Of a stretch of DNA of 64,000 bases, positions 9,821 through 60,235 are shown piece after piece. A program made the translations under genes and the position numbers. The stretch comes from Escherichia coli (lineage in GTDB: Bacteria > Pseudomonadota > Gammaproteobacteria > Enterobacterales > Enterobacteriaceae): the NCBI RefSeq assembly GCF_009931435.1, contig NZ_CP043414.1; one strand, written 5' to 3'. The notes beneath the pieces were generated by a model. The model saw only the letters and a list, made by a program, of their open reading frames with translations. It was not told the DNA's origin and searched no databases. Every line of letters begins with the position of its first letter. The first letter of the stretch is position 1.

Positions 9821-10234
9821 AAGAAAACATCCCCTGAGAGTTTAATTTTCGTCAAGATGCGTGGCGGACAATCCCCTGCCAGCGAAACGTTATCTTCCTG
9901 CTCCAGGTTTGCGACAAATTGGTGCGTCGCAAAAACGCAAACGTTTAGCTCCGCGCATACAAAACGGGTGGTAAAAAAAGCAAACGATTATCCGGCGATC
10001 ATAGCGGCTTTTTCAACCGAAGTTTGCTGCTTTTTTCTCTTTTATTGTCTTGACGATGAAAAACCAGGCAATTGATGCGCAAACGTTATCGTCGATGCGC
10101 AAGATTGCAGCGTTATCGAACCGTATACCGTTCAGGATTGCGATAAAAAATCGTCTGAGATGACAAAAATATTGCGGCTAAAAAGTGTACTTTTACACTG
10201 GCGAAGAAACGCCGGTAACATACAATTAAAGCAT

Positions 10235-10375
10235 CAACACCAACCGGAACCTCCACCACGTGCTCGAATGAGGTGTGTTGACGTCGGGGGAAACCCTCCT
10301 GTGTACCAGCGGGATAGAGAGAAAGACAAAGACCGGAAAACAAACTAAAGCGCCCTTGTGGCGCTTTAGTTTTGT
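10235..10375 (+). ncRNA. ryjA: Candidate small RNA at the K-12 ryjA position (placement by synteny only)
   Basis: K-12 carries a ~140-nt sRNA between soxR and ghxP, convergent with soxR. Here a hairpin plus T-run at 10347-10375 could end a plus-strand transcript. Sequence not verified against ryjA. Confidence 0.25.
10347..10367. terminator. Hairpin at soxR 3' end (bidirectional terminator candidate)
   Basis: aaagcgcc-cttgt-ggcgcttt with T-rich flanks on both strands, overlapping the soxR stop codon. Confidence 0.5.
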
Positions 10376-10830
10376 TCATCTTCCAGCAAGCGTGCGCCGG
10401 TACCTTCTTCTCCTAATCGGTCGCCCGGGTTACGCAACGGGCAATCACTGCGCGAAAGGCAGCCACAACCAATACATCCATCCAGTTCGTCACGCAGCGC
10501 CACTAAGGTATGAATGCGCCGATCCAACTCTTCTCGCCATTGGGACGAAAGCTGTTTCCACTCTTTCGCACTTAACGTATGCCCTTCGGGCAACACGCCA
10601 AATGCTTCACGAATGGTCGCCAGCGGAATGCCAATACGCTGAGCAATTTTGATGATTGCGACATATCGCAACACATCACGTTTATATCGCCGCTGATTGC
10701 CACTATTACGGATACTGCTAATCAACCCTTTGCTTTCATAGAAATGCAGCGCCGATACCGCCACACCGCTGCGTTTTGCCACTTCGCCGGGGGTTAGCAG
10801 CGCTTTAATGCGGGGTAATTTCTTTTCCAT
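10366..10830 (-). CDS. soxR: Redox-sensitive transcriptional activator SoxR (MerR family, [2Fe-2S]), 154 aa
   Basis: [37 protein letters not shown]...; C-terminal cysteine cluster [17 protein letters not shown]. Confidence 0.95.
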
Positions 10831-10841
10831 AAATCGCTTTA

Positions 10842-10859
10842 CCTCAAGTTAACTTGAGG
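10842..10859. promoter_or_regulatory. SoxR-binding palindrome in the soxS promoter
   Basis: Perfect 18-bp palindrome cctcaagttaacttgagg in the 85-bp soxR/soxS divergent spacer, at the position of the SoxR box in K-12. Confidence 0.85.
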
Positions 10860-10915
10860 AATTATACTCCCCAACAGATGAATTAACGAACTGAACACTG
10901 AAAAGAGGCAGATTT

Positions 10916-11239
10916 ATGTCCCATCAGAAAATTATTCAGGATCTTATCGCATGGATTGACGAGCATATTGACCAGCCGCTTAACATTGATGTCGTCGCAA
11001 AAAAATCAGGCTATTCAAAGTGGTACTTACAGCGGATGTTCCGCACGGTGACGCATCAGACACTTGGTGATTACATTCGCCAACGCCGCCTGTTACTGGC
11101 CGCCGTTGAGTTGCGCACCACCGAGCGTCCGATTTTTGATATCGCAATGGACCTTGGTTATGTCTCGCAGCAGACTTTTTCCCGCGTTTTCCGTCGGCAG
11201 TTTGATCGCACTCCCAGCGATTATCGCCACCGCCTGTAG
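10916..11239 (+). CDS. soxS: Superoxide-response regulator SoxS (AraC/XylS family), 107 aa
   Basis: MSHQKIIQDLIAWIDEHIDQPLNIDVVAKKSGYSKWYLQRMFRTVTHQTLGDYIRQRRLLLAAVELRTTERPIFDIAMDLGYVSQQTFSRVFRRQFDRTPSDYRHRL. Confidence 0.95.
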   Translation: MSHQKIIQDLIAWIDEHIDQPLNIDVVAKKSGYSKWYLQRMFRTVTHQTLGDYIRQRRLLLAAVELRTTERPIFDIAMDLGYVSQQTFSRVFRRQFDRTPSDYRHRL

Positions 11240-11241
11240 TT

Positions 11242-12828
11242 TTATTGCCTGCGCGTTAACCCCCGCGCGGGTAATTGCTCCATCCATTGCATAAACACCT
11301 GCGGCGGCATCGCCTTCGCAAAGAACCATCCCTGGCAATAACGCACGCCGCGTTTACGCAACCAGTTAACCTGATCCTCAGTTTCTACCCCTTCTGCGAT
11401 CGTTTTTAACCCCAGACTGTGCGCCAGCTCGATGATGTGTTCCGCAATCAAATGACTGGTTTTATGGGTGGTCAGCGTCTCAACAAACGATTTATCGATT
11501 TTCAAAATATCGACATTCAATGATTTAAGGTTATGCAAGTTAGAGTAGCCAATACCAAAATCATCAATTGCCACTTCGTAACCAGCCTGGCGGAAAGCCA
11601 GAATAATTGGTGTCATTTTGTCGACATCAAGAAATGCATGTTCAGTCACTTCAAATTTAATTTGCTGTGGACGCACCGCGTATTGCTCTGTTTTCTGATT
11701 GGTTCGCGCTATCAACCGTGACGTATGAAAATCGGAGGCCGACAGGTTAATAGAAACATAGCGATCGGCATGTGTTGCCAGGTACGCGCCCAGATCGCGG
11801 AAGACATTATCAATAACATAATCAGTTACCTGTCCGATCATTCCCTCCTTTTCTGCCAGCGGAATAAACTCTGCCGGATTCATTACTTGCCCCTGCTCAC
11901 CAGGCCAACGTAACAATGCTTCAGCGCCGATACATTTTTCTGTTTTGATATCGATTATTGGCTGGTAATAAAGGCAAAGTTGATGTTTTTCGAGGGCGCG
12001 TTGCAATTTGCGTTTGGGAGACAAATAGTTTTGTCGAATACGTAGCCAGAGTAATAACAGAACAAGACTCCCCAAAATACCGGCGGGTAACGCAAAAATA
12101 AGATGATTATAAAAATGCGCTATAAGACGTTGATATGAAGTCGCAACAATGGCTGCAATTGGGCGTTTTGTCGAATAAACTGTCGCATATAAATAGCCAT
12201 TTCTTTGTACGGTTAAATCATTCAAATGAATCAGTGGAGAAAACGTTGCTGCCGAGGCCTCGTTGCTTAACGAGAAAAAGGTTTTCGTTACCGTATCATA
12301 CACACCCCATTGCAATGTCGGATCATCAGACATCACTTCACTCCAGAAGAGAGGGTTGATGACCACCACATAATTTCCCCGCTGCATATAGGTCATTTTA
12401 TAGCCAGAGAAAAAAGGCGTATCGCGGTAATAATAGATAGAAACCTTAGGTTCACGCTTATAATCGGCCGGTGCAATCGTATAGCCGTTTACAGGCGCTA
12501 TCAGCGATGAGCATAAAAAATGGTTATCACGGGCATAGATCAATTCATTAATATAAAGATAGCCACGAATAATATTCAACATTCGCTTTTGATGGGCTGG
12601 AGTGCAAACTTGCCCCTGATAGCGTTCTGCTGCATCGCTCACTAAATCTGCCTGGCGAATGACCAGCTCGGATTTATCCAGCGCCAGCTGAGCAAAAGTT
12701 TGGAGCTGACTATTCACTTCTGATTTTGCCCAAAGGAAGGCAATCCATAGCGACAGTATGATGGGAAAGAGAACTAAAAAGATAATGCCCGGCAACGCCA
12801 GTAATTGGTGTCGTGCACGATGACTCAT
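11242..12828 (-). CDS. pdeC: c-di-GMP phosphodiesterase (CSS sensor domain plus EAL domain), about 528 aa
   Basis: Two TM segments flanking a periplasmic domain, then EAL domain (…EALLRWP…, …[27 protein letters not shown]…). Start set at [10 protein letters not shown] (track ORF starts 3 codons upstream). Stop lies 2 nt from soxS stop (convergent). Confidence 0.9.
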
Positions 12829-57554: not shown

Positions 57555-57961
57555 AACAATTTCCCTTCATTGAATGAATGGAGATTTACCCAAAAACATT
57601 TCGGGCGGGATCGAGTATACACAACTAAAGCATGCGAATTACGGCGTGGGGAATTAGTGATGGGGTTTTAAGATAATTGGAATGAATATCAAATATAAGT
57701 TTCAACTTATATATAAATAATATTTAAAATCAAAAATTTAAAACAAAATCAAAAATAATTAACCTACGTATTTTCCGAAATCAATCATGATTAAAAATCT
57801 ATTTTAGGATTAACCTCACGGTATGATTTTCGTTAAATCACAGACAAGGGGATTTATCTGATAAAACAATGCCGACTTATAGTCGGCATTGTTATTAAGG
57901 TTATTTAATCAATCCTGCTATGTATTAATTGCCGAATATGATGTACATATCGGCATCGACC

Positions 57962-58040
<79 letters not shown>

Positions 58041-59936: not shown

Positions 59937-59944
59937 TGTACTAC

Positions 59945-60235
59945 CTGCGCTAGCGCAGGCCAGAAGAGGCGCGTTGCCCAAGTAACGGTGTTGGAGGAGC
60001 CAGTCCTGTGATAACACCTGAGGGGGTGCATCGCCGAGGTGATTGAACGGCTGGCCACGTTCATCATCGGCTACAGGGGCTGAATCCCCTGGGTTGTCAC
60101 CAGAAGCGTTCGCAGTCGGGCGTTTCGCAAGTGGTGGAGCACTTCTGGGTGAAAATAGTAGCGAAGTATCGCTCTGCGCCCACCCGTCTTCCGCTCTTCC
60201 CTTGTGCCAAGGCTGAAAATGGATCCCCTGACACG
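59945..60235 (+). promoter_or_regulatory. Lysine riboswitch (LYS element / L box) in the lysC leader
   Basis: About 300-nt structured leader with conserved segments as I recall them for the lysC riboswitch (…ccagaagaggcgcgttgcccaagtaacggtgttggaggagccag…ggtgcatcgccgaggtgattgaacggctgg…); immediately upstream of lysC. Confidence 0.8.

Follow-up and report, generated by a model that had tools for sequence, protein, structure and literature searches.

The perfect 18-bp palindrome at positions 10842–10859 of the window, the whole stretch of 64,000 nucleotides that was analysed, is almost certainly the single SoxR-homodimer operator of the bidirectional soxS/soxR promoter, and the arrangement would be the textbook switch. 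The element is real, had been interpreted correctly and was already known; it holds nothing new to biology. Its sequence, its geometry, its identity with K-12 DNA, the identities of the flanking genes and its invariance across genera are observed directly in this work. A strain with 2.4% coding divergence at this locus has an intact redox switch for the superoxide and multidrug-resistance regulon, equal to that of K-12. The case is also useful as a positive control, in which a real operator was recognisable from sequence alone with one positional detail wrong.

The SoxR box in the soxR–soxS spacer

The soxR–soxS divergent control region, or PsoxS/soxR bidirectional promoter, spans 85 bp (10831–10915), as in K-12. 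This length, given in the first-pass annotation, is exact and is set by the flanking reading frames at 10366–10830 on the minus strand and 10916–11239 on the plus strand. The SoxR box, CCTCAAGTTAACTTGAGG (10842–10859), is assigned as the operator for one SoxR dimer from its sequence, from the electrophoretic mobility shift assays (EMSA) of PMC12825309 and from its conservation. Its two 9-nt arms pair at 100% complementarity and adjoin without a gap, and the comparison of the arms in the window sequence bears out the perfect 18-bp palindrome described earlier; the symmetry ends at the next outward pair, A10841/A10860. Placed between the two divergent genes, the box is separated by 11 nt from the ATG of soxR and by 56 nt from that of soxS. 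Its description as centred in the spacer was wrong, with the palindrome centre at 10850.5 and the spacer centre at 10873. Position is the sole point on which the earlier description has to be corrected: the box is situated inside the soxS −35/−10 interval, hard by the soxR ATG.

Symmetry by itself is weak evidence for the element. The number of perfect palindromes of at least 18 bp expected per 64 kb of simulated first-order Markov sequence is 0.37, and another one, 24 bp long, is present in the window at 41810–41833. Since a perfect palindrome of this length is not rare on this scale, the significance of the box rests on its sequence identity and its position. The same expectation lends something to the reading in which the palindrome arose by chance or serves another dimeric regulator (a MerR paralogue such as CueR or ZntR, or SoxS), with SoxR bound elsewhere in the spacer, a reading that is weighed below with the mutational and comparative evidence. 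CCTCAAGTTAACTTGAGG itself was found once in the 64-kb window with up to three mismatches allowed, where 0.02 occurrences are expected.

The flanking genes

The gene to the left of the spacer is soxR (10366–10830, minus strand), identified from its reading frame and the NCBIfam equivalog model TIGR01950, and its product of 154 aa is the MerR-family [2Fe-2S] redox sensor. The protein scores 247.6 bits against TIGR01950 (cut-off 116.9) and far under the cut-offs of the CueR, ZntR and MerR models, matches the SoxR entries 2zhg and 2zhh of the PDB over its full length, and carries the four-cysteine motif C-X2-C-X-C-X5-C in its translation. The gene to the right is soxS (10916–11239, plus strand), which encodes the AraC/XylS-family activator of the superoxide regulon (107 aa) and was identified from its reading frame and the equivalog model NF007584, against which it scores 228 bits (cut-off 174). 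Both proteins thus exceed their NCBIfam equivalog cut-offs, and the names soxR and soxS given to the two genes beforehand are confirmed.

SoxS is identical to its K-12 counterpart at 107 of 107 positions and SoxR at 152 of 154, the differences being T38S and G74R. These two substitutions form a recurrent SoxR polymorphism pair in clinical E. coli, reported from a fully levofloxacin-susceptible isolate and from resistant isolates (PMC4317672). Since the pair is present in susceptible as well as resistant isolates, it is probably the mark of a lineage and not a constitutive allele.

At the far end of soxR, the small RNA sraL/RyjA was detected at 10233–10373 on the plus strand (Rfam RF01408, 153 bits). 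The 3′ end of this RNA is antisense to the final 8 nt of soxR, and the two have a terminator hairpin in common at 10342–10372. This overlap is the known K-12 arrangement, in which ryjA is annotated beside soxR.

Architecture of the soxS promoter

The −35 hexamer of soxS, TTTACC (10838–10843, plus strand), agrees with TTGACA at four of six positions and shares its final 2 bp with the start of the box. Exactly this hexamer is swapped out in the “soxS down” mutation listed in Table S2 of PMC12825309. The −10 hexamer, TATACT (10863–10868, plus strand), agrees with TATAAT at five of six positions, is marked in the same Table S2 and is invariant across genera. The two are separated by a counted spacer of 19 bp (10844–10862), 2 bp longer than the 17-bp optimum, and the 19-bp distance between the soxS core elements is rated sub-optimal in PMC12825309. 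The box overlaps the −35 hexamer by 2 bp and stops 3 bp short of the −10 hexamer. A SoxR palindrome between the soxS −35 and −10 elements had been predicted, and TTTACC, 19 bp and TATACT were found accordingly. The locus has the layout of a MerR-type promoter, with the operator inside the −35/−10 interval and an over-long spacer whose 19 bp falls in the 19–20 bp range of that class.

A consensus sigma-70 scan of 10200–11400 with spacers of 16–18 bp only called no promoter, because of that spacer limit and the weak soxR −35 element. The empty scan is what an over-long MerR-type spacer predicts and is not evidence against the promoter.

The transcription start of soxS, transferred from the cappable-seq start in Table S2 of PMC12825309, maps to about 10877 (within 2 nt) on the plus strand. 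A start at this position would give a 39-nt leader and place the box at approximately −35 to −18 of soxS. The likely Shine-Dalgarno sequence of soxS, AGAGG (10904–10908, plus strand), was read from the sequence and lies 7 nt before the ATG; its GAGG is kept in most of the enteric loci compared. Downstream of the −10 hexamer is a half-site-like CCCCAAC (10869–10875, plus strand), which agrees with CCTCAAG at five of seven positions and is not conserved between genera. It probably corresponds to the “partial SoxR motif” of PMC12825309 that SoxR does not bind, because its position fits the placement of that motif between the shared −10 and the soxR −35.

The soxR promoter and leader

On the minus strand, a perfect −10 hexamer TATAAT (10861–10866) shares 4 bp with the −10 hexamer of soxS, and PMC12825309 depicts the −10 region as common to both directions of the bidirectional promoter. 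The corresponding −35 hexamer, TTCGTT (10885–10890, minus strand), is located 18 bp upstream of TATAAT and agrees with the consensus at two of six positions. In Table S2 of PMC12825309, ttcgtt becomes ttGACA in the “soxR up” mutation. This hexamer differs between genera and reads TTCGTC in Salmonella, Citrobacter and Klebsiella. The transcription start of soxR, transferred from Table S2 of PMC12825309, falls inside the box at about 10853 (within 1 nt) on the minus strand, so that the box would span about −6 to +12 of soxR; the coordinates of both starts are good to 1–2 nt, the mark-up in the text of that table being imprecise. The −10 elements with 4 bp in common and the transferred divergent starts at about 10877 and about 10853 make up a bidirectional promoter.

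The left end of the box, read as its reverse complement, provides the soxR Shine-Dalgarno sequence GAGG (10842–10845, minus strand), which by our count is 11 nt from the AUG. The soxR Shine-Dalgarno sequence is described in PMC4405209 as 10 nt from the AUG, an unusually long distance that is the basis of the polyamine-stimulated translation of SoxR, and the mutagenic primers of that study bring exactly this GAGG nearer the AUG.

The palindrome could also be read as an RNA hairpin of the soxR or soxS transcript, for example a terminator, an attenuator or a stability element, and the mapped starts make this exceedingly improbable. The RNA of 10836–10865 (30 nt) does fold, at −9.5 kcal/mol (z = −4.6), into a 7-bp stem closed by a 4-nt loop, but any perfect palindrome folds well, which renders the z-score of the stem uninformative. 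Neither mapped transcript contains both arms, as the soxS mRNA runs from about 10877 and the soxR mRNA from about 10853; the 23-nt leader of soxR lacks structure (−0.2 kcal/mol, z = +0.7); and neither strand has a T-run after the stem, nor was a terminator called at the box. A role as RNA hairpin was rejected on the transcripts, the leader and the missing T-run.

Comparison with K-12 and other E. coli genomes

A mismatch to the K-12 SoxR site, named beforehand as the observation that would speak against the assignment, was looked for and none was found; the box is identical at 18 of 18 positions (NC_000913.3), and the same site is printed in Table S2 of PMC12825309. A 145-bp query, made up of the spacer with 30 bp of flank at either end, matches K-12 MG1655 at 100% identity; 5420 complete E. 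coli genomes gave a match, and in 5417 of them the identity is 99% or higher. SoxR footprints and EMSA data have reportedly been published for the identical sequence.

The locus as a whole is less uniform. Over soxR, the spacer and soxS (874 bp), 21 positions differ from MG1655, 19 of them at codon position 3; all are in the coding flanks, the two amino acid replacements in SoxR among them, and the regulatory DNA shows no difference. None of the differences falls between 10778 and 10992. The two loci also agree in the hexamers, in their 19-bp spacing, in the shared −10, in the 11 nt between the box and the soxR ATG and in the order of the genes, ghxP–sraL/ryjA–soxR–soxS–pdeC. Taken against K-12 alone, the substitution-free spacer is not significant (P = 0.11; P = 0.054 for the longest run), and the argument from conservation therefore rests on the cross-genus alignments.

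Among 5426 complete E. coli genomes, the best match to the soxRS segment 10366–11239 has 99.1% identity, and that to K-12 has 97.6%. The source strain is not closely represented among those genomes, as far as this segment indicates, even though its spacer equals that of K-12.

One further E. coli genome deserves mention. The human isolate E. coli E138 (NZ_AP022351.1, 2200–3060) carries IS1X4 in the soxR–soxS spacer, at a site that corresponds approximately to 10856–10864 of the window and is flanked by the 9-bp duplication GAGGAATTA. The insertion parts the soxS −35 and the SoxR box from the soxS −10, for which reason the soxS switch should be broken or rewired in that isolate.

Conservation across genera

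Contigs of one genome per species were scanned for CCTCAAG-N4-CTTGAGG, which yielded at least 120 loci; by our own arithmetic, 298 Gb should contain about 1100 matches by chance. Among the matches listed, 27 of 121 boxes are within 300 bp of a SoxR-like reading frame, a figure that, from a scan with exact arms, gives association with soxR rather than frequencies or a rate of box divergence. The chance of adjacency to one gene of ~450 bp in a genome of several Mb was estimated, rather than computed, at about 1 in 5000. The boxes near SoxR-like genes among these matches come from gamma-proteobacteria, alpha-proteobacteria and actinobacteria.

Twelve loci with both soxR and soxS are found among the matches listed, from Escherichia albertii, Citrobacter, Enterobacter, Klebsiella, Superficieibacter, Pantoea and Rosenbergiella. 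All 12 have the same 18-mer box, including the central TTAA, which the search left unconstrained. The invariance extends to a 32-bp block, CTTTACCTCAAGTTAACTTGAGGAATTATACT (10837–10868), which spans the −35, the box and the −10 and is unchanged in 14 sequences from Escherichia to Pantoea and Rosenbergiella, the 14 arm bases being invariant by design of the search. Outside the block, both the sequence and the length of the spacer differ between loci, and the distance from the box to soxS ranges from 51 to at least 126 bp.

A set chosen independently of the box gives the same picture. The loci of Citrobacter freundii, Salmonella and Klebsiella pneumoniae were retrieved by overall similarity (78–82% identity), being taken from soxRS matches on records labelled as plasmids. 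In all three, 10835–10869 is invariant, and variation is seen in the leader of soxS and in the −35 region of soxR.

The plasmid records with soxRS are mostly of megabase size or several hundred kb, and one is of 94 kb; those of megabase size are probably mislabelled chromosomes. The 452-kb pPJT1-452kb of Salmonella sp. PJM1 (NZ_OM317741.1), typed as a conjugative IncHI2A plasmid, has soxR, soxS and the neighbouring EAL-domain gene, which points to chromosomal DNA that was either taken up into the plasmid or assembled together with it.

Published experiments and mechanism of the switch

Binding, activation, repression and the start sites are documented in the literature on identical DNA and would apply to this locus on that basis. 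In EMSA with DNA of the same sequence as this region, Warman et al. 2026 (PMC12825309) observed a single SoxR complex; all binding was lost when the complete site was mutated, and mutation of the partial site had no effect. In vitro, SoxR strongly activated soxS transcription and simultaneously blocked the soxR transcript. The repression of soxR persisted when the soxS −35 was destroyed, and SoxR was found to occlude the soxR start and part of the soxR −10. SoxS modestly repressed both transcripts in the same system (PMC12825309). The binding affinity of SoxR is similar in all redox states and only the oxidised form activates; it remodels a promoter with a 19-bp spacer, and the same single site serves to autorepress soxR (PMC4411124). 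The same 85 bp are contained in the soxS-promoter primer used for an oxygen-inducible GFP plasmid (PMC4234026).

These experiments bear on the reading of the box as a chance palindrome or as the site of CueR, ZntR or SoxS. It draws further on the second, partial SoxR-like half-site in the spacer (10869–10875) and on the modest repression of both transcripts by SoxS in vitro, but the box is base for base the characterised K-12 site, and SoxR binding disappears with the box and is indifferent to the partial site. Moreover, boxes with the same arms adjoin SoxR genes in alpha- and gamma-proteobacteria and actinobacteria among the matches listed, and the box and hexamers are invariant across enteric genera while the remaining spacer drifts. 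Such a reading is hardly credible; identity with the K-12 site, the published mutants and the cross-genus invariance led to its rejection. The description of the box as a known SoxR element in the classical arrangement is, conversely, supported by the K-12 identity, the equivalog scores, the hexamers and the published EMSA.

Nothing in the analysis speaks against the box as the SoxR operator, and with it the switch is expected to work as follows. SoxR, whose minus-strand gene starts 11 nt from the box, would occupy the box whether reduced or oxidised. Basal transcription of soxS would be low because the hexamers, 19 bp apart, are out of phase for sigma-70 RNA polymerase. Upon oxidation or nitrosylation of the [2Fe-2S] cluster, the bound SoxR would distort and untwist the DNA at the centre of the box, realign the soxS −35 and −10 and turn soxS on; SoxS would then activate the superoxide and multidrug-resistance regulon. 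In the opposite direction, the minus-strand TATAAT that overlaps the soxS −10 would drive soxR. As the soxR start lies inside the box, SoxR bound in any redox state should block and shut its own promoter, resulting in autorepression. The shared −10 and the soxR start within the box would allow one SoxR dimer to activate soxS and repress soxR (PMC12825309). The left arm of the box doubles as the distant GAGG ribosome-binding site of soxR. The step of DNA distortion is known for K-12 SoxR from published work; for this locus we infer it from the identical sequence, and we also infer the behaviour of the T38S/G74R SoxR of this strain.

A broader proposal is that a block of 32–35 bp has been frozen across the Enterobacterales by five overlapping codes, namely the soxS −35, the SoxR operator, the shared −10, the soxR start and the soxR ribosome-binding site, and that poor translation of SoxR is a forced by-product. 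The GAGG of the left arm of the operator would be held 10–11 nt from the AUG and SoxR translation would depend on polyamines. The proposal has an even chance of being right. Each of the layers has already been published separately, and only the synthesis would be new.

Relation to other MerR-family promoters

The merT/MerR, copA/CueR and zntA/ZntR promoters carry a dyad operator inside an over-long −35/−10 spacer of 19–20 bp. Promoters of the MerR family are activated by DNA distortion rather than recruitment, a mechanism cited in PMC12825309, and the regulator gene is often divergent from its target. The three systems differ from SoxR in their operator sequences and in the signal, which is a metal ion in place of the redox state of a [2Fe-2S] cluster.

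The SoxR boxes of Stenotrophomonas mfsA and Streptomyces (sav_7218) have the arms CCTCAAG...CTTGAGG or close variants of them, the Streptomyces site being CCTCAAGATTGCTTGAGG (PMC8867992). Like the enteric box, the non-enteric boxes are located between the −35 and the −10 with a 19-bp spacer, and in the mfsA–soxR region of Stenotrophomonas one site activates the divergent target and represses soxR (PMC4411124). In Stenotrophomonas and Streptomyces, however, there is no soxS and SoxR directly controls effector genes (pumps and oxidoreductases). The central 4 bp vary among the non-enteric boxes, whereas all enteric soxS loci of the present sample have TTAA.

Other elements of the window

The 24-bp perfect palindrome at 41810–41833, AAAGCCGGATGATCATCCGGCTTT, is situated between the convergent reading frames 39205–41688 (plus strand) and 41843–42715 (minus strand). 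It is preceded by an A-run and followed by a T-run, and for this reason looks like an ordinary bidirectional intrinsic terminator.

Several RNA elements elsewhere in the window match Rfam at gathering score. Three naRNA4/REP-type elements are located at 2908–2979, 46336–46406 and 57966–58037 on the minus strand, and STnc430 at 57751–57900 on the plus strand. A lysine riboswitch is present at 59956–60152 on the plus strand (99.5 bits), and a 16-bp perfect palindrome at 59944–59959 abuts its start.
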